64,000 nt of DNA from a virus (lineage: Duplodnaviria; Caudoviricetes), in IMG/VR virus record IMGVR_UViG_3300020577_003313; one strand, given 5' to 3'. The notes below the pieces were generated by a model. That model did not search any database. It was given only the letters and a program-made list of their open reading frames with translations, and had not been told where the DNA came from. This document shows, one piece after another, positions 2,613 to 60,163 of the stretch (its first letter is position 1; each line of letters opens with the position of its first letter). The position numbers and the translations under genes were made by a program.

Positions 2613-3511
2613 GTTATTTATGGTTGCTGAGTGTTACTAGGATCGGTATACTTACCGTGATTAACTAAATCTTCTCCTAGTTCTTTTTTAAGAGCTTCTA
2701 ACTTCTTCTGCTTTCTCTTAAGAGCAGCAGCAGCTTTTTGTTTCTGGCGCTTAGCTTCAAGTTTTTCAAACCTTTTTTCGCGCTCTTTTTCTTCTGCGTA
2801 GGCTTCTTTAGCTTTCTCAACAATACTGGCATAGTCTATTTGTTCAGCTAATCTTAGCCCAAACGATTTATTGGACGAGCAGTAGAATTTAAGAATCTCG
2901 TATTCCTCATCTGTTACCTCTTCCCAACTACCTAAAGATGTAACCACATCAATATTTTCATAATAAGTTGATGGTAGAGGGGCAGTTTGATACAAGATGA
3001 TTCTACGCATCTTCGTCTACCTTATATAGCCAAGGATTACTATAGAAAAATTCTGTAATGTTTAGAGCACTCTTAATAGCCTTACTAACTTTTGCGTGGA
3101 ATAAGGTATAGTCTAAACCAATGTCCTGGCAAACTGCGTCAGTACAATACTCAACTATTTGATCTCTAAACTCATTGAGTTCTTTTCTATTTATCTTCTT
3201 GAATTTTTTAGCAGCCATCTGATGCCTCATCAAATTTACTAGGTCTTAGGGATAAATTAAACTCGTGAGCCTGCTCACTAGTTAACTCTTGTACATTAAG
3301 TACATCTCTGTAAAAGTCAATAGCGTTCTCACCTATTCCAGTTGATGATCCTGCATTGATACAGTTCTCAATATAGTCCATAGTTTCTGGATCTGATGAA
3401 TGAACCATATCAATAAGTTTATTGAACGCGCTGTCTGTATCCTTAGCTTCAATGACTACATCAAAGTCGTGAGTAGTAGGTATCCAGCATGGTATTTTGA
3501 AAAAAGGCATA

Positions 3512-41700: not shown

Positions 41701-41806
41701 TGGTAGGCCGGGTGGGACTCGAACCCACGATCATCCGCAAATCAGGCGGCTCCATTTCTGGGCCGGATTATAAATCCGGTGCATTAACCAACTATGCTAC
41801 CGGCCT
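41701..41806 (-). tRNA. tRNA-Ile(UAU), 106 nt with 34-nt variable region
   Basis: Perfect acceptor AGGCCGG/CCGGCCT, stem CCGGA-TT TAT AA-TCCGG, TTCGAGT, ACCA. Confidence 0.8.
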
Positions 41807-44815: not shown

Positions 44816-45286
44816 ATGAATCAATGTCAAAATAAAGACTGCAACAAAGAGACTAAAAATCCAAGATTTTGCTCAAAATCCTGTTCTGCAATAGTAACAG
44901 GATCAGAAAGTCATAAACGAAAAAGAACTAAAACTTGTAAAGTATGTAGTGCTTTAATTACGTCAGAAAAAACTTTCTGTAGTAATCTCTGTTACTCTAA
45001 AGGTAGAGCAAAACGAAGAACTACTAAGCCAATTGGTTATGAGAGAGTAAAAAATTTCAGAGCTAGATTGAAGCAACAAAGTATTGACTACAAAGGCGGA
45101 AAATGTAGTATTTGTGCTTACTCTAAATGTACAAAAGCTCTTGAGTTTCACCATTTAGATCCTACTCAAAAGGATTTTGTAATCAGTAGTGTTTCTAAAT
45201 CATTTGAAGCAATAAAATATGAACTAGATAAGTGTATTTTAGTTTGTGCAAATTGTCATAGAGAAATACATGACAAAATGCTCTAA
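44816..45286 (+). CDS. HNH endonuclease (tRNA-Ile cassette)
   Basis: YKGGKC..C, LEFHHLDP, KCILVCANCHREIH; N-terminal FCSKSC zinc fingers. Confidence 0.88.
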   Translation: MNQCQNKDCNKETKNPRFCSKSCSAIVTGSESHKRKRTKTCKVCSALITSEKTFCSNLCYSKGRAKRRTTKPIGYERVKNFRARLKQQSIDYKGGKCSICAYSKCTKALEFHHLDPTQKDFVISSVSKSFEAIKYELDKCILVCANCHREIHDKML

Positions 45287-47976: not shown

Positions 47977-48411
47977 TGGCGGGAGTGATGGGACTCGAAC
48001 CCATCTACTTAGCGTGCTCTATTCTGTGACAGTTAGCACACAAAACTATACATTTAGCTATCTCATTTTTGAGACGCTCATCTGACCATGTTTTAGATAC
48101 AGCTTTAGATACATCTAGGTCTTTTTGACTAGGGTCAAGATGATGAAATTCCAATGCTATTGGATTTGAGAATCCACATTTAAAGCACGGATGTTGTAAT
48201 TTGTACTCATTGATTAGAGTCTTTAGTTCTAATCTTCTTTGTCTTGTCCAATTAGTGGATCTTTTATGATGAGTACTCTTATGGTTTTGATACCATTTAT
48301 TCCAAGTGGCTTTTCTTACTTCTGGATCTTTACTGGGCATACAACCATATACGATTGTACTACACAAAAAGATCGACAATCTATTGCACTAACCAATTGT
48401 GCTACACCCCC
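47977..48411 (-). pseudogene. tRNA-Asp(GUC) split by an HNH gene (5' part 48411-48370, 3' part 48004-47977)
   Basis: GGGGGTG pairs with CACTCCC; D arm and TT-GTC-GA loop on one side, T arm + GCCA on the other. Confidence 0.85.
48005..48340 (-). CDS. HNH endonuclease inside tRNA-Asp
   Basis: PCFKCG, LEFHHLDP, KCIVLCANCHRIEH; ATG at 48340 preferred because the track start lies inside the tRNA. Confidence 0.88.
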   Translation of the reverse strand: MPSKDPEVRKATWNKWYQNHKSTHHKRSTNWTRQRRLELKTLINEYKLQHPCFKCGFSNPIALEFHHLDPSQKDLDVSKAVSKTWSDERLKNEIAKCIVLCANCHRIEHAK

Positions 48412-53073: not shown

Positions 53074-53122
53074 TGTTACCTTAGCGCAAAGTTATTTCCT
53101 AAAAGTATTTAGGAAAAAAGTA

Positions 53123-53252
53123 TCCTGAATAAAAATTGATAAGTCGTTTACGCGTTCTACCAATTGAACTACGACCGCATGGTGCGGTCGGTAGGACTCG
53201 AACCTACAACCTCGATCTCCAAAAGATGTAGACCTATCGGAGCATTTCAGGA
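53123..53252 (-). ncRNA. YrlA-type Y RNA with circularly permuted tRNA-like domain (130 nt)
   Basis: Order T arm (GTAGG-TTCGAGT-CCTAC), closed acceptor CGACCGC-ACCAT-GCGGTCG, D arm (GTTC-AATTGGTA-GAAC) inside a terminal stem; near Ro60. Confidence 0.85.
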
Positions 53253-53253
53253 A

Positions 53254-53314
53254 TGGGCGGGTGTGCTAGATTTAAACTAGCATAGCTAAGCTGTTTTGAT
53301 TAAACTAACACCCG
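53254..53314 (-). ncRNA. 61-nt anticodon-less mini-tRNA
   Basis: CGGGTGT/ACACCCG+CCCA, D-like and T-like arms, anticodon arm reduced to AGCTTAGCT. Confidence 0.6.
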
Positions 53315-53321
53315 AAAAAAA

Positions 53322-53437
53322 ACTCAGATAAAAACGTTGAGATGATTGCCTCCCCGGAACCGTCCTAGGCATGCACGAGTCGAACGTGCTCAGGGTTCTA
53401 TTCTAAGTAAAATGTAATCCCAACAAGCATTCTGAGT
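53322..53437 (-). ncRNA. Y-RNA-like gene with T arm (116 nt)
   Basis: ACTCAGA/TCTGAGT stem, ATGCT/TTTTTA loop, TACAT, GCACG-TTCGACT-CGTGC; 19 nt after the Ro60 stop. Confidence 0.75.
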
Positions 53438-53456
53438 ATACTCAATACGATTCTGA

Positions 53457-55115
53457 TTACTCAGAATCGTTGTCTTGTGAATTGGAAGCCTGGATAGATG
53501 TCTTGATGAGATCCACCCAGCTAACTCCCTTTGGCCTAGACACGAACGCCGACATGACATTGAAGATTACATTGCTGAAACCTCCAATATTCATCACATC
53601 ATCCGATGTCGAAGCCTGTGACATTGTGTTTGGGCTCAAGTCAATGAGGACAAGCTTCTTGTCCCCAGACTTGTTATAAGCTCTCCACAATTCTTGTGTC
53701 TTCGTTTGAGCAGCTCTAAGACCTGCGGATACAGTTGCACTGTACCGACTGTAGTAGTCAGCCCAAGATTCGTTATCACTGATAACAATGACGATGTCAT
53801 AGTTATCGTTCTTGATGTGCTCTAGACAGCACGAAACGCTCGTGCCACCTGATTGAGACTTGCTTTCAACGAACGCAGTGATTTCACCAAGTCTCTTGGT
53901 GCTATCAATCGCGCTGTTCCTACTAGCACTATCGAACTTGATGTTAGTATCAAAAATATGAAGATCAGCGTTACCACTGTTCTTCTTATAGATACCAGCA
54001 CCAATCAAGCAAGCTGCCTGTAGGCAGCTCATAGAGCTAGTAGCACCTTCTCTATTTCCAGTTACAGAAGTGCCCATAGAGCCACTACCGTCGATGAAGA
54101 TTGCAATCTTACCCTTCATCTCTGGAATGTTCTTGACCGTAAGGTCAAGCGCATCCTCAAGAGCGTTCTGAATTGCCTTCTCCTGGACAGTGTTGTGCTT
54201 GATCGCAGTGTAGATTTGGTATGGGAACACGCGCGAACGTGCTACCATAGTCTCATCTTTGAGACGATCTGCAATTACCTTGACCATCTTCTTGTCCTTA
54301 AGGACATTATGACGATCAAATGTATTGAGATTCATTCTCGTGAAATGCCAATTACCATTGGCAGCAAGCTGCAACCAATGATTATCGGTCAGTTCTTGAC
54401 CAGTGATTAGCTGGAAATCAACAACTGGGATCGTGCGCGTCTTGTCCTTCTTCCACTCTTCAAATTCCTTGAAGATGCTAGGAAGATCGTCGTAGCGGTA
54501 AGTCTTCTTTGAATCAGTATTCCCCGCCGGGTATCCCATGATCCACTTGAACGCAGCCTGACGGGCTGCATCCTTGGGCTTTGGATGAGCAAGTCTGATG
54601 ATATCCTTCAACGAAGGATCATTACCAACAGTTGCGTTAAGCAACTGCTGATCCGTCATCCTATTGAGATGAGCAGCAACAGAGTTGGAAATGGTAGAGC
54701 CGAGGCTCTTTCTACCAACCTTACCAGATCGAACCATCTGGATAAGATTACGAATCATCTTCGCATTATTGATAACGCGAGGATAAAATTGACGGAACAG
54801 AGACGGATCTCTCACAGAGAGAATTGCCATAAGCAAAGCTGGCATATCCTTCATGAAGCCAAAGCTTCTCGAATAGACAGCCATATTTGCCAAGGTTACA
54901 TCAGTGCATCCCAAGGACAGCTCAATTACCTTATCCAGCTGCTCTTCAGCAGTCGAATAGAAAGTATTGTTAAAGCAGCCAGTTACAGCTAGCTGAGCCA
55001 GAGCCTCTTCCTTGCCCTTATCATAGCTAAGGCCGCCGCTCTTGTTGACGACAACTACAGCGCGCGTCGCCTTCTTAGCCTTCTTCTTGCTACCAAATAA
55101 ATTCTTGTTAGACAT
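53457..55115 (-). CDS. rsr: Ro60/Rsr TROVE + vWA RNA-binding protein
   Basis: LAQLAVTGCFNNTFY, MKDMPALL, RSGKVGRKSLG, DIIRLAHPKP, RMNLNTF, VFPYQ, DGSGSM, ISDNESW; start at MSNKNLF. Confidence 0.92.
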   Translation of the reverse strand: MSNKNLFGSKKKAKKATRAVVVVNKSGGLSYDKGKEEALAQLAVTGCFNNTFYSTAEEQLDKVIELSLGCTDVTLANMAVYSRSFGFMKDMPALLMAILSVRDPSLFRQFYPRVINNAKMIRNLIQMVRSGKVGRKSLGSTISNSVAAHLNRMTDQQLLNATVGNDPSLKDIIRLAHPKPKDAARQAAFKWIMGYPAGNTDSKKTYRYDDLPSIFKEFEEWKKDKTRTIPVVDFQLITGQELTDNHWLQLAANGNWHFTRMNLNTFDRHNVLKDKKMVKVIADRLKDETMVARSRVFPYQIYTAIKHNTVQEKAIQNALEDALDLTVKNIPEMKGKIAIFIDGSGSMGTSVTGNREGATSSMSCLQAACLIGAGIYKKNSGNADLHIFDTNIKFDSASRNSAIDSTKRLGEITAFVESKSQSGGTSVSCCLEHIKNDNYDIVIVISDNESWADYYSRYSATVSAGLRAAQTKTQELWRAYNKSGDKKLVLIDLSPNTMSQASTSDDVMNIGGFSNVIFNVMSAFVSRPKGVSWVDLIKTSIQASNSQDNDSE

Positions 55116-55165
55116 CTCAATGTCCTTGAGTAAATTGTTAGGAACTATACGAACCAGCCCGTCAA

Positions 55166-55507
55166 TCAGACGGGCGGAGTATCTTTGTAGATCGTCTTGT
55201 TGGCACGCTCGATCCACTCTTGAGCCTCACGCAAGGCCGCGATGAGCACCAGCACATTGTTTTCGTTGGCCGATGCCGACCGACCCCAGGTGCCATCCTT
55301 CTTCATGAAGGCTCGCTCGAAGGTGACGGAGAAGAAATTCTTCCCGTCCTTCGTGGGATTGGTCCAGATCGCCACACGGAATGGTGACATACGAACCACG
55401 TGCGTGGGCTTCGTGCTCCGTTCCATAGGAACGGGGATCTGATTGACCTGAACTTGGGTTTGGGTCTTGGGAGCAGAACGACGAGACTTATTGAGAGAAA
55501 CAGTCAT
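55166..55507 (-). CDS. Small PC4-like putative ssDNA-binding protein
   Basis: VAIWTN..KDG...SVTFERAF..KDG.W. Confidence 0.45.
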   Translation of the reverse strand: MTVSLNKSRRSAPKTQTQVQVNQIPVPMERSTKPTHVVRMSPFRVAIWTNPTKDGKNFFSVTFERAFMKKDGTWGRSASANENNVLVLIAALREAQEWIERANKTIYKDTPPV

Positions 55508-55975
55508 TTTTGTTACAGAGTTGTGAAAAAATTGATGATCAGAGATGTGTTACTTAGGTTCGCTATCAGTTGTGTTTGTTTGAGATTCTTCTTGTTTGTC
55601 TCCAAGATAGCTTGAAAGAACAAATTTATGCCACTCAGGATTTTCCTTCTCACACTCTCTAATTGAGATCAAGAGCGGCATTACTTTATTCATATTGAGT
55701 AGAGATAGTAGTTCAAAAATTGCAATACCTCCAATCTCAACGAAAGGAGACAAATGAACACCAATCTCGTAAGCTGGCAAGAGCAAAATTGCCCAAGCAA
55801 TTAGCTCGATCATGATCATTGTAAACCATGACGCGCCTGTAGTTTTCTTGAAATAGCTATAGCCATACCAGTAGTCAGTTTTCCATTCTATGGTTCTGAT
55901 ACCATAGTGAAAAACAATGTATACGGCAAAGAGAAGAGTCGCGATTTGTCTCGGATTTTCCATGTGTATAGTTGG

Positions 55976-56385
55976 CGGAAGTAATAGTATACTATGTTCC
56001 TAATCTTTTATACTTGTCTTTTCTTATTTGTCTGTATTTTTCTCTATTTCTGTCACGCCACTGTTTTTGATAGTCTTTAGGCGTAAGCTTACTTTTTTGC
56101 TTATTGGTTTTAGCAGAACAATTACATGATAAGTGGCTGAAAGATATGTTAGTTATATCAAAGAATTTTTCTACAGGATTTTGGCTATTTAGCCAAGGTA
56201 TCTTATGTTCTATAGAAAAATCTTTCCTTGTAAGAGGAAGTGAACAACGAAAACATATATTTTTGCCAATTTCAAGTAACAAACTAAAAAGTATATCTTT
56301 CATTAGTCTGTAACTTGCTGTACCTGGATTCATTCCAAGTTGTATTTCTTTTTTAGATTTCACAAAAAGGATACGGAAGTAATAG
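55976..56385 (-). repeat. 12-bp direct repeat CGGAAGTAATAG (55976-55987 and 56374-56385) flanking an HNH gene
   Basis: Repeat equals the 3' end of tRNA-Ser(GCU); only the distal copy is followed by CCA. Confidence 0.85.
55992..56363 (-). CDS. HNH endonuclease at the tRNA-Ser 3' end
   Basis: CFRC, SIEHKIPW, NISFSHLSCN. Confidence 0.8.
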   Translation of the reverse strand: MKSKKEIQLGMNPGTASYRLMKDILFSLLLEIGKNICFRCSLPLTRKDFSIEHKIPWLNSQNPVEKFFDITNISFSHLSCNCSAKTNKQKSKLTPKDYQKQWRDRNREKYRQIRKDKYKRLGT

Positions 56386-56460
56386 GATTCGAACCTATGG
56401 ACTTTTTACAGTCTCATCTTTAGCAAAGATGCGCCTTAAACCAAACTCAGCCATACTTCC
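56374..56460 (-). tRNA. tRNA-Ser(GCU), CCA not encoded
   Basis: TT-GCT-AA, long variable arm, G73. Confidence 0.88.
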
Positions 56461-56465
56461 GTATG

Positions 56466-56554
56466 TGGCGGTGATGGTGGGGTACGATCCCACAGAGCTT
56501 TTTACACTCGCATCCTTTCCAAGGATGTTCCTAAATCCATTTCGGCTCATCACC
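56466..56554 (-). tRNA. tRNA-Ser(GGA)
   Basis: TT-GGA-AA, long variable arm, T-loop ATCGTAC, GCCA. Confidence 0.8.
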
Positions 56555-56901
56555 AAAAGGTGGTAGAGCTATTTCCAGATTTCTTTTCTAAGAAGTTCAC
56601 TCATGTATTTGATAGCTTTGGCTTGAAGGATTTGCCATTTCTTAAGCTCGCTGTCAGTAGCTGGTCTCAAGCAATGTACAAATTGACTAGATTGCCCTCT
56701 TTCTATGTGAGTAGCATGACCATGCCAATTACCATTTTCAATGGTAAATGAATGGTAGTATCCTTCGTATGGTCTGTCAATCTTTCTTTTTCCGTCACCG
56801 GTTGAATAAGTAGATCCTACGGTTGTCTTTCTAGGTAGATCTTGTGGAGCAACATCCGGTTCGATATGCCAGTAGTCCATGATTATTTGTACTAATCTGA
56901 A

Positions 56902-56945
56902 TGGTACCCTTACCAAGACTTGAACTTGGAACCTACGGTTTAGAA
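56902..56945 (-). pseudogene. 3' half of a resident tRNA-Arg(UCU)
   Basis: T-TCT-AA-ACCGT-AGGTT-CCAAG-TTCAAGT-CTTGG-TAAGGGT-ACCA. Confidence 0.85.
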
Positions 56946-56977
56946 TCTTGAATTCTAATTTGTAACACGTAAATTAG

Positions 56978-57065
56978 TGGTACAGCTGGTAGGATTCGAA
57001 CCTACAATTTGGTTGCCCAACCAGATTAGAAATCTGGGCCGTTATCCATTTCCGGTCACAGCTGC
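56978..57065 (-). tRNA. tRNA-Arg(UCU) with long variable arm (88 nt)
   Basis: CCAGA-TT TCT AA-TCTGG, variable arm TTGG-GCAA-CCAA, A after the D-loop GG, ACCA. Confidence 0.85.
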
Positions 57066-57073
57066 ATGAAATT

Positions 57074-57421
57074 ATGAATACGTGTACAAAATGTAAATGT
57101 TCAGGACCCTTCTACAAGAAGGGTAACAGGAATACTTCTTATTGCAAAAATTGTTTCAATTCTTATTGTATGGAAAGATGGAAAGAAAAGAAACAAAAAG
57201 CAATAGTATACAAAGGTGATTGCTGTTTTGATTGTAAACAGCAATATCATTACTCAATATATGAATTTCATCACTTAGATCCAAAAAGTAAAGACTACAA
57301 TTGGTCTAAATTGAGAATGAAGTCTTGGGCTTCCATAGTCAAAGAACTAGACAAGTGCGTAATGTTGTGCGCTAATTGTCATAGATCTAGACACTGGGAC
57401 AAAGATAACTCATCCAGTTGA
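57074..57421 (+). CDS. HNH endonuclease (tRNA-Arg cassette)
   Basis: YKGDCCFDC, YEFHHLDP, ELDKCVMLCANCHRSRH. Confidence 0.88.
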   Translation: MNTCTKCKCSGPFYKKGNRNTSYCKNCFNSYCMERWKEKKQKAIVYKGDCCFDCKQQYHYSIYEFHHLDPKSKDYNWSKLRMKSWASIVKELDKCVMLCANCHRSRHWDKDNSSS

Positions 57422-57432
57422 GCTATAAGGGC
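57409..57432 (-). pseudogene. 5' fragment of the resident tRNA-Arg(UCU)
   Basis: GCCCTTA-TA-GCTC-AACTGGAT-GAG; GCCCTTA pairs 7/7 (one G-U) with TAAGGGT of the 56902 half. Confidence 0.85.
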
Positions 57433-57748
57433 TTATGTATAGACTACATACGCGCTTAGTCTACATGATATCTAGCACAATGCAATTCATCTTTTACATG
57501 ATCCCAGATACACAGCCAAAACTCAGCAGCCTGAGCCTTAGTGAGTTCTGAAGCTATTTCATTAGCCAAGAACATAGCAAAAGCAGAACGGCAAGCACAA
57601 AGGAACAGAAGTACAGAACCTGGATTCTCTAGATACTTATCTTTTAGCTCCGTAGCCAAAAGGCGCAAGCTATTTGCAGACAAGATAACCTCGTCTGTGC
57701 TTTCTCTAGTTGGCAATGGTGGTAAGGATGCCATTTTTTTTAGGAAAT

Positions 57749-57795
57749 TGGTAGACCGGGTGGGAGTTGAACCCACACGAATAATCCGCTTAAAA
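57749..57795 (-). pseudogene. 3' half of a resident tRNA-Lys(UUU)
   Basis: T-TTT-AA-GCGGA...GTGGG-TTCAACT-CCCAC-CCGGTCT-ACCA. Confidence 0.8.
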
Positions 57796-57828
57796 ATTGT
57801 AAATTTTAAGATGATCAGGTCGCAAAAA

Positions 57829-57917
57829 TGGTGGGACCGGTGAGATTCGAACTCACGGTGGACTTTCGTCGCCCGCTTAAAAGGCGGATACCATCGACCA
57901 ACTCGGTACACGGTCCC
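57829..57917 (-). tRNA. tRNA-Lys(UUU) with long variable arm (89 nt)
   Basis: GGGACCG/CGGTCCC, CT-TTT-AA, variable arm GAC-GAAA-GTC, ACCA. Confidence 0.85.
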
Positions 57918-57924
57918 ATACAAT

Positions 57925-58455
57925 ATGGACATCCAAGATCAACTTAAGAAATTATACATTGATAACAGATTATCAATACTAGATTGTTCAGAAAAATTAG
58001 GTATTTCTGCAACAAAAGTTAAATACTATCTTAGTAGATTTCAAATCAAACGAAATCAATATACTAAAATAGACGGTACGTCTGAAGATAGAATTTGTAC
58101 AAAATGTAAGACGTTAAAAAACGTTTCAGAGTTCTATTTCCAGTCTTACAAAACTTCGGATAGAAAATCTAGACAAGGTTCTTGGTGTAAATCTTGCATG
58201 TCTAAACAAGTTATTGAAAGACAACGCAAGTATAAACAGCAAGCAGTTGACTACAAAGGCGGAAAATGCCAGAATTGTGGCTATAGCAAATATCTAGGAG
58301 CACTAGAATTTCATCACTTAGATCCTACTCAAAAGGATTTCGAGATGTCTAAATTTACTAAATCTCCCTTAGGAGATTTTGCTAAGGAAGAACTAAATAA
58401 GTGCATATTGCTTTGTGCTAATTGCCATAGAGAAGCACACGAAACAAAAGTGTAA
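57925..58455 (+). CDS. HNH endonuclease (tRNA-Lys cassette)
   Basis: N-terminal HTH-like + CxxC; YKGGKCQNCG, LEFHHLDP, KCILLCANCHREAH. Confidence 0.88.
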   Translation: MDIQDQLKKLYIDNRLSILDCSEKLGISATKVKYYLSRFQIKRNQYTKIDGTSEDRICTKCKTLKNVSEFYFQSYKTSDRKSRQGSWCKSCMSKQVIERQRKYKQQAVDYKGGKCQNCGYSKYLGALEFHHLDPTQKDFEMSKFTKSPLGDFAKEELNKCILLCANCHREAHETKV

Positions 58456-58828
58456 GCTTTGCTCTACTTGGAATAAAGCATTTCGATCAATCTTCCAAGA
58501 GGCGCGGCGCCTTCTGCAAGATTTGCGAAACCCTTTGGCATTGATTCACCAACAACAACAAAAAGTACAACAGCAAGACTAATCTTGCTTACAGCTTTAG
58601 CAAAGCCAAAGTCTGTCAGATAGCCTCTTGCATCTTTTTCCAAATTCTTATCCGCTCCAGCAAACAGAGCGATCATAAGAATTATACACAAAAATGCCAA
58701 TGAAGTATGGCATATACCAATACTGGTACAGTATGTACCGCGTTGCTGGATTAGCTCTTGCCATGCGGGATTGACGCCCTCTTTCATGGCTTTGAGAATT
58801 TCCAGCATTTGCTTTTGTAGTTCTTCGT

Positions 58829-59591
58829 TCATTCTGAAATCTCTAGGTAGCCGAGGATCTCAACACAGGTATCAAAAATAATTTGACTAACTGACTGTAC
58901 AGTCAATTTATCCTCTTCAAGAAGAGATTTCAAAACAAGGTCCTGGGCTTGGTTGCAGGAGTTCTTTACAGCAAGCCAAGTTACCTTACTGTTACAGGCA
59001 GTAACATATCTGAAGATAGTGCCTATCTTTAGAGATCTCCTTTTAGGGAGATCATTATTTGGCTTTACAATGGTGATATTCATTGCGTGATCTCCAGTGT
59101 TCCGATGATTTCGACCAAAAGGTTAGAAGTGCCGCCCCCAGGGAGTACCGTGCATAAGTCTAGCATTCTGTGGTTCAGGCTGATATCGGCGGACGGGCCA
59201 GCGCACATCTTCCCTACCACGTAGGCTTGATTCTCCCCCATATAGCGGAAGATTGTGCCACATGGCAGATCCTTTCGATAGATCTTTGGAAGCTGGGGAG
59301 GGACAATCTTGATATTCATTGTGTGACCTCCATTTCCCCTAAGATTTCAACAGCTTCATTGTTGAAGGTTTCGTAGGTTATCCAGTTTTGGACATTGACG
59401 TCTTTCATTAAAACCTCATTGATTGCAATGAATACCATTCGATCTTTGCATCGGGATCCGGCAGGAGTATTTTCCGCCCCTGTAATATATCGGAAGACAG
59501 TTCCAGGCTTCAAAGAAGCCCGATAAATCTGTGGAGGAGGAGAAGACTTCATCTTGATATTCATTGCGTGTATCTCCAGGCATCCAAGCAT
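58829..59591 (-). repeat. Three tandem paralogous ~80-aa genes plus the tail of a fourth
   Basis: MNI...R..L..GT(I/V)FRY...VEI(L/I)G.LE; junction sequence TTCATTG(C/T)GTG recurs near 59079, 59315 and 59560. Confidence 0.7.
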
Positions 59592-60163
59592 TCCCCTCTC
59601 AATCTGAAAGGACCGTAGAAATCTGATTCAGATTCGTCGTAGAAATACCAGTTATTGCAGTAAGCAATATTCTTCTTTTCTCTATTAGAATCCCACTTAC
59701 GATCTCTATCATCGGTTCCTGACACAGAACCAATGAAGATTTTGCTATTTTTGGTATCTCTTGTAACTTTCATATTACTTGAACTTGCCTTGAATATCCT
59801 TCCAGTCAGCCTCATTGGCCTTAGCTACAAGACTATTAAGGCAGTGAATTGTATGTTCGATCTCATCTTGAAAAGATGGATGAAGCTTATTGAGAATCAT
59901 TGCGCCAGGAATCAAAACTCTGATTCTGTGGATTGCAGATCTCAGTTCAGATTCAGTAGGCTGATTACTCATCGTGATGAAGATTTAGGCCGTAAAACCT
60001 AACGCGAGCAGAACAATTACACTGAGTTCCGTCACCAGTAAGGTAAATACATCCTTTATCGTGCTTGAGCAGAACTTCTTGACCAAAGCACGGGTCATGG
60101 TCTGTGCAGGAATCTGCATACGTTGTTTCCTTGGTACACGGAGGATGAATTCCGTCTCTGAAT

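Follow-up and report, generated by a model that had tools for sequence, protein, structure and literature searches.

A long-arm tRNA-Lys(UUU) gene, an HNH endonuclease gene and half of an ordinary tRNA-Lys gene in a large phage genome: a probable homing cassette with its own replacement tRNA

The 64,000-nucleotide (nt) stretch of IMG/VR virus record IMGVR_UViG_3300020577_003313 (Duplodnaviria; Caudoviricetes), hereafter the window, is part of a large phage genome whose tRNA genes in this stretch lie on the minus strand. One locus in it brings together the 3' half of an ordinary tRNA-Lys(UUU) gene, an intact tRNA-Lys(UUU) gene with a long variable arm, and a gene for a predicted HNH endonuclease. 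Direct reading of the sequence along the minus strand gives the order open reading frame (ORF) 58832-58464, HNH gene in antisense, tRNA-Lys(UUU), spacer, tRNA-Lys 3' half and ORF 57737-57456, with the HNH gene and the intact tRNA placed head to head and the start of the former lying 7 nt from the latter's 5' end. An earlier note on this DNA had reported the same grouping; its coordinates for the Lys locus all agree with the direct reading, and the observation of a half gene beside a long-arm tRNA-Lys and an HNH gene is confirmed. The features, and a comparable tRNA-Arg locus close by, are as follows:

57456-57737, minus strand: downstream ORF, from the ORF list
57749-57796, minus strand: 3' half of an ordinary tRNA-Lys(UUU), from position 32/33 to CCA, by direct reading and the 3'-half profile
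57797-57828, minus strand: tail or spacer of 32 nt, from the CCA of the new tRNA to the remnant, by direct reading
57829-57917, minus strand: intact long-arm tRNA-Lys(UUU), 89 nt, by ARAGORN and Rfam RF00005
57925-58455, plus strand: predicted HNH endonuclease gene, 176 amino acids (aa), by its match to phrog_2255
58460-58467, minus strand: candidate D-arm trace GTAGAGCA, by position only and without statistical support
58464-58832, minus strand: upstream ORF, with its stop codon TAG at 58466-58464 and an 8-nt gap to the HNH ORF
56902-57432, minus strand: Arg cassette, for comparison, by direct reading, ARAGORN, Rfam and profiles

The remnant, from 57796 to 57749, reads TTTTTAA GCGGA TTATTCGT GTGGG TTCAACT CCCAC CCGGTCT A CCA and keeps an intact T arm, the 3' strand of the acceptor stem, A73 and the CCA end; its variable region, at 8 nt, is odd as compared with the usual 4-5. 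The earlier placement of its first base at U33, 33 nt away from the intact tRNA, is right to within one base, position 32 also being a T and the gap being 32 nt. Nine canonical phage tRNA-Lys genes supplied a profile of positions 32-76, whose positions 2-45 match 57795-57749 (E 5.6e-5, 19.6 bits) and which scores the remnant above the 3' part of the intact long-arm tRNA. Further, a blastn search of 2.3 gigabases (Gb) of phage records returned Rhodobacter phage RcXuper, Sinorhizobium phage Phosso and Pectobacterium phage DU_PP_V for the remnant, whose T arm and acceptor strand (GTGGGTTCAACTCCCACCCGGTCTACCA) differ at one of 28 positions from the tRNA-Lys of RcXuper and at two of 28 from that of Phosso. 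The remnant is not a chance resemblance, because orphan T-arm hairpins in the 64-kilobase (kb) window are confined to the tRNA strand. It is called as a tRNA by neither ARAGORN nor Rfam, and an attempt to recover it as a truncated Rfam tRNA was abandoned, since clan competition left only a tmRNA T-arm match. The remnant is the dead leftover of a resident ordinary tRNA-Lys(UUU) gene, its 3' half being a scar.

The intact gene is called by ARAGORN as tRNA-Lys(ttt) (57829-57917, minus strand, 89 nt) and scores 48.6 bits against Rfam RF00005 (gathering score 29; model positions 1-71), the alignment placing a 12-nt insert in the variable region. It forms a 7/5 cloverleaf with A73 and an encoded CCA, and its 15-nt variable region carries a GAC-GAAA-GTC hairpin. 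By ARAGORN it is the sole tRNA-Lys in the window. The earlier note had regarded this long-arm tRNA as new or remodelled, a notion that does not survive comparison, as the same class-II-like tRNA-Lys is found in many phages, mostly without an HNH neighbour. A blastn search with the 89-nt tRNA against the same phage records revealed long-arm tRNA-Lys copies with both CUU and UUU anticodons, plus an 88-nt tRNA-Asn, in Mesorhizobium phage Cp1R7A-A1, and matches of 88-89 nt also in Rhizobium phage RHph_I1_18 and Tunturiibacter phage Tunturi_5. A 635-kb uncultured phage has three long-arm copies and one normal copy, and RcXuper has an 88-nt tRNA-Lys(CUU). A pattern scan of IMG/VR added ten further matches, seven of which ARAGORN calls as tRNA-Lys of 82-92 nt; the other three (L009, L013, L015) were excluded from the family.

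The 18 long-arm members align as a cloverleaf with a short D stem, a large D loop and the extra arm, and 20 of the 22 predicted pairs, the three predicted in the extra arm among them, are altered on both sides in one or more sequences of this alignment. The window tRNA shares the features of the family, namely a UUU or CUU anticodon, a length of 82-93 nt, a covarying extra stem-loop and the conserved T arm CGTGAGTTCGAATCTCAC or a near variant. Most long-arm tRNA-Lys loci are without an adjoining HNH gene. The long arm is therefore a trait of a widespread phage tRNA-Lys lineage with which the nuclease is associated and of which it is not the creator.

The product of ORF 57925-58455 matches phrog_2255 ('HNH endonuclease') with an E-value of 4.4e-35 and combines an N-terminal helix-turn-helix, a Cys4 ribbon and an HNH (His-Me finger) core. 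It has 4956 homologues at E<=1e-10, and in a 20-sequence alignment the columns H130, H131, N166, H168, H172, C115, C118 and C164 are invariant, with C167 retained in at least 90% of the rows. Pfam PF01844 is recorded for several close homologues, the window protein itself not being reached by this model. On these features the predicted product is an HNH (His-Me finger) endonuclease. The gene is free-standing, with the tRNA gene 7 nt upstream and the stop codon of the other ORF (58464-58466) 8 nt downstream, and no Rfam intron family is detected in 40000-64000 at E<=1. The window encodes three paralogues of it, at 57074-57421 (the Arg locus, 39% identical), 44816-45286 (the Ile case) and 48005-48379.

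An association with tRNA genes extends across the relatives of this enzyme. In most of 160 metagenomic and viral loci with such relatives, a tRNA gene lies no more than ~100 nt away, mainly one for Arg(UCU), Asn(GUU) or Lys(UUU). In a FastTree phylogeny of 149 enzyme cores over 85 columns, the window Lys enzyme groups with those of loci L106 and L026, all three being head to head with tRNA-Lys(UUU), and the window Arg enzyme groups with enzymes beside tRNA-Arg(UCU). The identity of the neighbouring tRNA changes 33 times on this tree, as against 54.8 +/- 2.1 with shuffled labels, a descriptive comparison since relatedness alone lowers such counts. Additionally, a homologue from the Logan assemblies (P0006, 55% identical) bears an N-terminal extension, GFEPM-WKINPLL-VKS-QVQ-SAN, that lines up residue by residue with the antisense reading of a long-arm tRNA-Lys(UUU) gene, such as that of locus L018 (RFELT-VGFLLR-VKS-PLH-SAN), and since the extension is an antisense tRNA translation, its enzyme gene starts a few bases from a long-arm tRNA-Lys. 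Other homologues (P0001, P0005, P0009) have terminal extensions such as VGLEPTT, RIELPT and GVEPST, which are typical antisense translations of tRNA T arms; gene callers have therefore run nuclease ORFs into neighbouring tRNA genes or fragments. The Lys cassette was found in none of the cultured phages, the best tblastn matches being 54% identical over partial length or lying beside other tRNAs.

The same arrangement recurs in a second phage. Locus L106, the best match of an IMG/VR scan with a profile built from the closest HNH homologues, lies in a phage genome of 189.7 kb that has terminal repeats and a CheckV rating of complete, and its HNH protein of 176 aa is 54% identical to that of the window Lys locus. 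On the tRNA strand it presents a 5' fragment, the HNH gene in antisense, 19 nt, a 93-nt long-arm tRNA-Lys(UUU), a 43-nt tail, a 3' half and tRNA-Leu. The 5' fragment GTGCCCGTAGCTCAGTTGGTAG is the best match in the locus to the 5'-half profile (E 0.0014); it comprises ordinary tRNA positions 1-22 (GTGCCCG TA GCTC AGTTGGTAG), abuts the stop codon of the HNH gene and is preceded by the stop of an unrelated ORF followed by a hairpin. The 3' half, CTTTTAA ACCGT CAAT GAAGG TTCAATT CCTTC CAGGCCT A CCA, is the best match in the locus to the 3'-half profile (E 2.3e-4). In both the window and L106 the 3' halves begin at the first bases of the anticodon loop (31/32-32/33). The two remnants differ in the T stem (GTGGG/CCCAC in the window, GAAGG/CCTTC in L106) and also in the acceptor strand, and because these differences are compensatory, they derive from two different functional resident tRNA-Lys genes and not from a single ancient scar. 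The DNA immediately beside one locus is unrelated to that beside the other, and only a Dps-like gene some kb off is common to both.

The long-arm gene is the sole tRNA-Lys among the 24 tRNA genes of the L106 phage, and its sole status in that genome and in the window fits a replacement role. Orphan Lys halves accompany both of the loci in which a long-arm tRNA-Lys stands head to head with an HNH gene and none of the 11 loci without an adjacent HNH gene. The earlier note had named half genes without the cassette in relatives as evidence against its reading; the outcome favours that reading, as not one of these 11 HNH-free long-arm loci holds an orphan Lys half.

A second cassette in the window itself, lying 850 base pairs (bp) from the Lys cassette, involves tRNA-Arg. 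It consists of a 3' half (56902-56945), a 32-nt tail, an 88-nt long-arm tRNA-Arg(UCU) (56978-57065), an HNH gene on the plus strand (57074-57421) and a 5' half (~57404-57432) whose acceptor strand pairs 7/7 with that of the 3' half; the half-profiles match it at 56942-56902 (3') and 57428-57414 (5'). The geometry is close to that of the Lys locus, with the HNH start 8 nt as against 7 nt from the tRNA 5' end, a tail of 32 nt in both, and remnants that begin at 32/33. The parallel that the earlier note had drawn between the two loci is borne out by this matching geometry, by the paralogy of their enzymes and by the independent Lys cassette of L106, which has both remnants. Across the three cassettes the right junction is constant and the left one varies, falling at position 22/23 in L106 and at ~26-29 in Arg, with nothing left in the window Lys locus. 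Taken alone, the Lys copy is weaker than the Arg case, as it has neither a left half nor an empty site to compare it with, and L106 supplies the missing support.

The spot beyond the HNH gene where the Arg and L106 cassettes keep their 5' fragments is occupied in the window Lys locus by the 8-mer TGCTCTAC (58460-58467), which overlaps the stop codon of ORF 58464-58832. The earlier note had found no convincing 5' remnant here, in keeping with the 5'-half profile, which returns nothing on 58456-58510 even at E 1000 and yet detects the 5' halves left orphaned in the Ile and Arg cases and in a split gene near 48 kb (48404-48385). Its further suggestion that GTAGAGCA might be a D-arm trace has the right place in its favour, but gains no support from the profile, and acceptor pairing is at chance level: the candidate 5' acceptor strand TGATCGA was rejected, its 5/7 pairing being what chance is estimated to give.

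The 32-nt tail between the new tRNA and the remnant begins TTTTTGCG, resembling the start of the L106 tail (TTTTGCG), and shows no alignment with tRNA-Lys 5' halves. Its final 15 nt repeat the opening 15 nt of the remnant in inverted and imperfect form (57784-57798 / 57801-57815, 80% complementary), and at the Arg junction (56934-56971) the tail end is likewise an imperfect inverted copy of the remnant start (22 nt, 73%). The resulting hairpins enclose the leftover anticodon loop (z -2.2 for Lys, -2.5 for Arg), and tail and remnant together, including the T arm, fold better than shuffles at the Lys locus (z -2.9). The L106 junction has no inverted repeat and no such fold (z -0.3). The repeat may have been left by the insertion mechanism, may act in RNA processing, or may have arisen by chance. 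Two other readings of the tail were discarded: as a D-armless tRNA, tail and remnant would need a 12-bp 'anticodon' arm that is not conserved in L106, and a promoter (TTGCGA-18-TACAAT, 9/12 matches) does not stand out, with 10 promoter-like sites in the region as compared with 7.0 +/- 2.8 in shuffles.

These observations are best accounted for by a homing-endonuclease cassette, free-standing and of the HNH type, that brings its own replacement tRNA and sits inside a former ordinary tRNA-Lys(UUU) gene, which we regard as the probable nature of the locus. The unit would comprise the HNH gene and the complete class-II-like tRNA-Lys(UUU), head to head, together with the short tail. By analogy with SegB of phage T4 (see below), in a mixed infection with a cassette-free phage the enzyme would cleave that phage's ordinary tRNA-Lys gene close to the anticodon arm. 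Repair would thereupon insert a copy of the cassette, the donor's two tRNA halves acting as short homology arms; on this proposal, it is because the halves supply the repair homology that they flank the cassette and that the right junction is constant. Breakage of the resident gene would be costless, as the cassette would supply a working tRNA-Lys, and the long-arm gene would escape cutting through its differing sequence: its extra arm begins 6 nt beyond the junction-marking loop, a position that would fall inside a recognition site of typical length. The 5' half in the window would since have been lost or overwritten, so that this copy may no longer move between unrelated genomes. A more ambitious proposal, offered tentatively, is that a selfish element with tRNA halves as portable homology arms homes into tRNA-Lys genes of unrelated phages and pays with a class-II-shaped tRNA-Lys, whose extra arm might both protect its own gene from the nuclease and make the RNA resist host defences that cut tRNA-Lys; homing endonucleases might then spread defence-resistant tRNAs among phages.

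Several points weigh against the homing cassette. As the 5' remnant is absent from the window, insertion into a whole gene is suggested here by analogy. The new tRNA and the remnant have nearly the same anticodon stem-loop (GCGGG as against GCGGA), and recognition therefore cannot rest on that stem-loop alone. The endonuclease activity, the cut site and the immunity of the long-arm gene are putative. The tree that ties the enzyme lineage to tRNA-Lys is based on 85 columns, with modest support (SH-like 88), and within that lineage the L026 enzyme faces a normal 77-nt tRNA-Lys with no remnants, so that a lineage tied to tRNA-Lys genes does not always split one. Further, contigs of four public runs (Logan) mapped on 55900-59700 at ~93-100% identity reveal no empty site, every contig covering the Lys locus carrying the cassette, including the 48-kb X20 and an X1 stretch (~7% different) that spans the junction between the HNH gene and the upstream ORF. 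One apparent joint across the region (57007 to 57829 in X3, side 20) was dismissed as T-arm cross-matching. The public runs come with the habitat labels wastewater, activated sludge and river. The flanking ORF 58464-58832 has no relatives in IMG/VR or cultured phages; as probes for related loci, the Ro60-like gene of the window returned one distant contig without tRNAs, and the upstream ORF of L106 matched itself only. The X20 contig lacks 55976-56373, a clean 398-nt gap at an unrelated HNH gene beside tRNA-Ser, and 56560-56900 (341 nt), an ORF abutting the Arg remnant, and, in the interval that separates the Arg 5' half from the next ORF (57434-57455), carries 222 different letters where the window has 20; gene-sized insertions and deletions thus segregate in this tRNA region. 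No population differences are listed in 57749-57917, and eight are listed in the neighbouring ORF.

An unlikely alternative to the homing cassette is a decayed tandem pair of one long-arm and one ordinary tRNA-Lys, in which the second gene lost its first 32 nt to a deletion or replacement and the HNH gene came in independently. Such pairs do exist (locus L006 has one normal and three long copies, and in L010 a normal copy follows the long copy after 5 nt), the spacer has just the length of tRNA positions 1-32, and in the window no 5' remnant lies beyond the HNH gene. The spacer is nevertheless unlike tRNA-Lys 5' halves, and the Arg locus has an equally long tail and yet a true 5' half on the far side of its HNH gene; L106 likewise has the same break point with its 5' fragment beyond the HNH gene. 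Three breaks at 31-33 would be improbable outcomes of random deletion, and orphan halves occur only where the HNH gene is present.

The better-than-shuffled folds of the tail and remnant, both with the T arm and as the junction hairpins of Lys and Arg, bear on an explanation that we consider improbable, in which the remnant is kept as a functional RNA, i.e., a hairpin and a T-arm minihelix ending in CCA that would signal processing or termination of the new tRNA or act as a decoy for tRNA-Lys-binding enzymes. Both the T arm and the CCA are indeed perfect, and the lack of listed population differences in 57749-57917, as against eight in the neighbouring ORF, points the same way, with very low power over 169 nt. 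Against it stand the absence of the fold at the L106 junction, the tail length and sequence, which are unconserved between cassettes beyond TTTTGCG, and the aberrant 8-nt variable region of the remnant. A tRNA followed by a partial 3' copy is also the classic signature of site-specific integration, in which an element carrying a tRNA 3' segment duplicates the gene end. That origin is hardly credible here, as the remnant does not reproduce the intact 3' end (T arm GTGGG as against GTGAG, acceptor strand CCGGTCT as against CGGTCCC), only 32 nt separate the intact tRNA from the partial copy, and the extra material lies 5' of the remnant and not between duplicated 3' ends. The differing T stem and acceptor strand equally led to rejection of a duplicated integrase attachment site, no integrase family being found among the seven ORFs scanned (55992-59083).

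With regard to defence, the benefit against PrrC and PARIS that the earlier note had proposed is a putative one. The AriB nuclease of PARIS cuts tRNA-Lys(UUU) between C40 and A41 and reads the D loop as well (PMC12409363). Both the new tRNA (GCGGG) and the old remnant (GCGGA) have C40-G41, and the swap therefore changes nothing at the AriB cut site; a PARIS benefit at that site was accordingly set aside, C40-A41 being absent from the old and the new tRNA alike. The old gene has lost its D loop. In the tRNA-Lys(UUU) that phage T5 encodes, resistance to AriB depends on bases around 40/41 and in the D loop (PMC12409363). The window tRNA resembles it as a phage-encoded tRNA-Lys(UUU) that departs from the usual sequence, but the T5 case is one of point changes, with no mention of the variable region (PMC12409363), whereas here there is a whole extra arm, and the displaced resident gene already lacked C40-A41. 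A separate observation concerns RHph_I1_18 (L003 1-3849), in which, on the annotations as deposited, the 89-nt tRNA-Lys lies between genes for a putative polynucleotide kinase and an ATP-dependent DNA ligase, with several ORFs between. This arrangement recalls the kinase and ligase of T4 that repair cut tRNA-Lys. The wide, largely HNH-independent family and the kinase/ligase setting in RHph_I1_18 are compatible with a putative counter-defence role.

Free-standing homing endonucleases in phage tRNA clusters are known. SegB of T4 is one such enzyme, which cuts inside tRNA genes (PMC2330249, PMC13096335); it recognises a T-loop DNA motif and in mixed infections secures near-100% inheritance of itself and of neighbouring tRNA genes (PMC2330249, PMC13096335). 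The window locus is alike in having a lone nuclease gene within a tRNA cluster. It differs in that SegB is a GIY-YIG enzyme and the window enzyme a predicted HNH enzyme with an N-terminal helix-turn-helix, and in that SegB sits between intact genes whereas the cassette lies within a broken tRNA gene and brings a same-anticodon replacement of another structural class.

Group I introns with homing endonuclease genes occur in tRNA anticodon loops, and I-HmuI is an HNH enzyme of a phage intron. They share with the present case insertion in the anticodon arm, an enzyme of the HNH family and gene halves as flanks. They differ in that the space here is filled by the ORF and the tRNA, with no Rfam intron in 40000-64000 (E<=1), and in that the cassette replaces the host gene with a second gene and does not restore it by splicing; a group I intron in a tRNA anticodon loop was rejected on the lack of an Rfam intron match and of the 5' half. 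As to the tRNA, class II tRNAs are those for Leu, Ser and Tyr, and Mukai et al. 2017 reportedly described allo-tRNAs with an 8/4 or 9/3 acceptor/T-stem architecture. In common with them, the window tRNA has a variable arm that is long and built as a stem and tetraloop, and its D stem is short and its D loop large; it differs in its UUU (Lys) anticodon and an extra arm of ~3 bp; identity as an allo-tRNA was rejected, the acceptor stem being 7 bp and the T stem 5 bp. No description of a tRNA-splitting cassette with a same-anticodon replacement, nor of the long-arm tRNA-Lys family, was found in the limited collection of literature searched.

Homing endonucleases are usually tolerated because they reside in self-splicing introns or inteins, or between genes. 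If the proposed reading is correct, a gene-breaking cassette with a working substitute would be a third solution to this problem of tolerance, and it would explain both the half genes that litter the tRNA clusters of large phages and the odd tRNAs beside nuclease genes. For annotation, such halves and some of the odd tRNAs escape standard tRNA finders. The wide long-arm family, taken with the standing of tRNA-Lys as a favoured target of defence nucleases, makes for a testable counter-defence link, and the charging of a class-II-shaped tRNA by lysyl-tRNA synthetase (LysRS) raises a question of tRNA identity.

Some further observations concern the relatives of the enzyme and the rest of the window. 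An element of ~65 nt is conserved near HNH relatives on the minus strand of L033 (~478-540), L035 (~3012-3073), L108 and L113 (~2979-3040) and L115 (~3034-3095), lying 30-60 nt from the HNH gene in four of these five unrelated contigs and 331 nt from it in L033. It consists of GGTAGCGAAAGCTATAGTGGTATGTCTAAGCTGTGGGTC followed by a T arm and acceptor strand. Its loop reads UCU (Arg), a GNRA hairpin takes the place of the D arm, and it is not called by ARAGORN; it may be another rewired tRNA carried by the nuclease family. In the window, at 47977-48411 on the minus strand, a tRNA-Asp(GUC)-like gene is split by the HNH paralogue ORF 48005-48379 on the same strand. The 5' part (~48411-48368) keeps GGGGGTG as its acceptor strand, together with a D arm and a GTC-bearing anticodon arm, and the 3' part (48004-47977) has a T arm and CACTCCC G CCA, the acceptor strands pairing 7/7. 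This gene offers no ribozyme-sized space and no visible spare tRNA, and ARAGORN calls no other tRNA-Asp in the window. Also on the minus strand, at 53120-55217, a Ro60/TROVE-like gene (53457-55217) is followed by a match to a YrlA-like Y RNA (53120-53252), which at 52 bits falls short of the gathering score of 69, and by a tRNA-like piece (53257-53314). Finally, 41704-41806 on the minus strand holds a 103-nt tRNA with the loop TTTATAA (UAU, Ile-type) and a 33-nt variable region able to form two hairpins, which is missed by ARAGORN and scores 65.2 bits with Rfam; tRNA-Ile(UAU) genes of 90-93 nt recur in the related loci L047, L061, L077 and L124.

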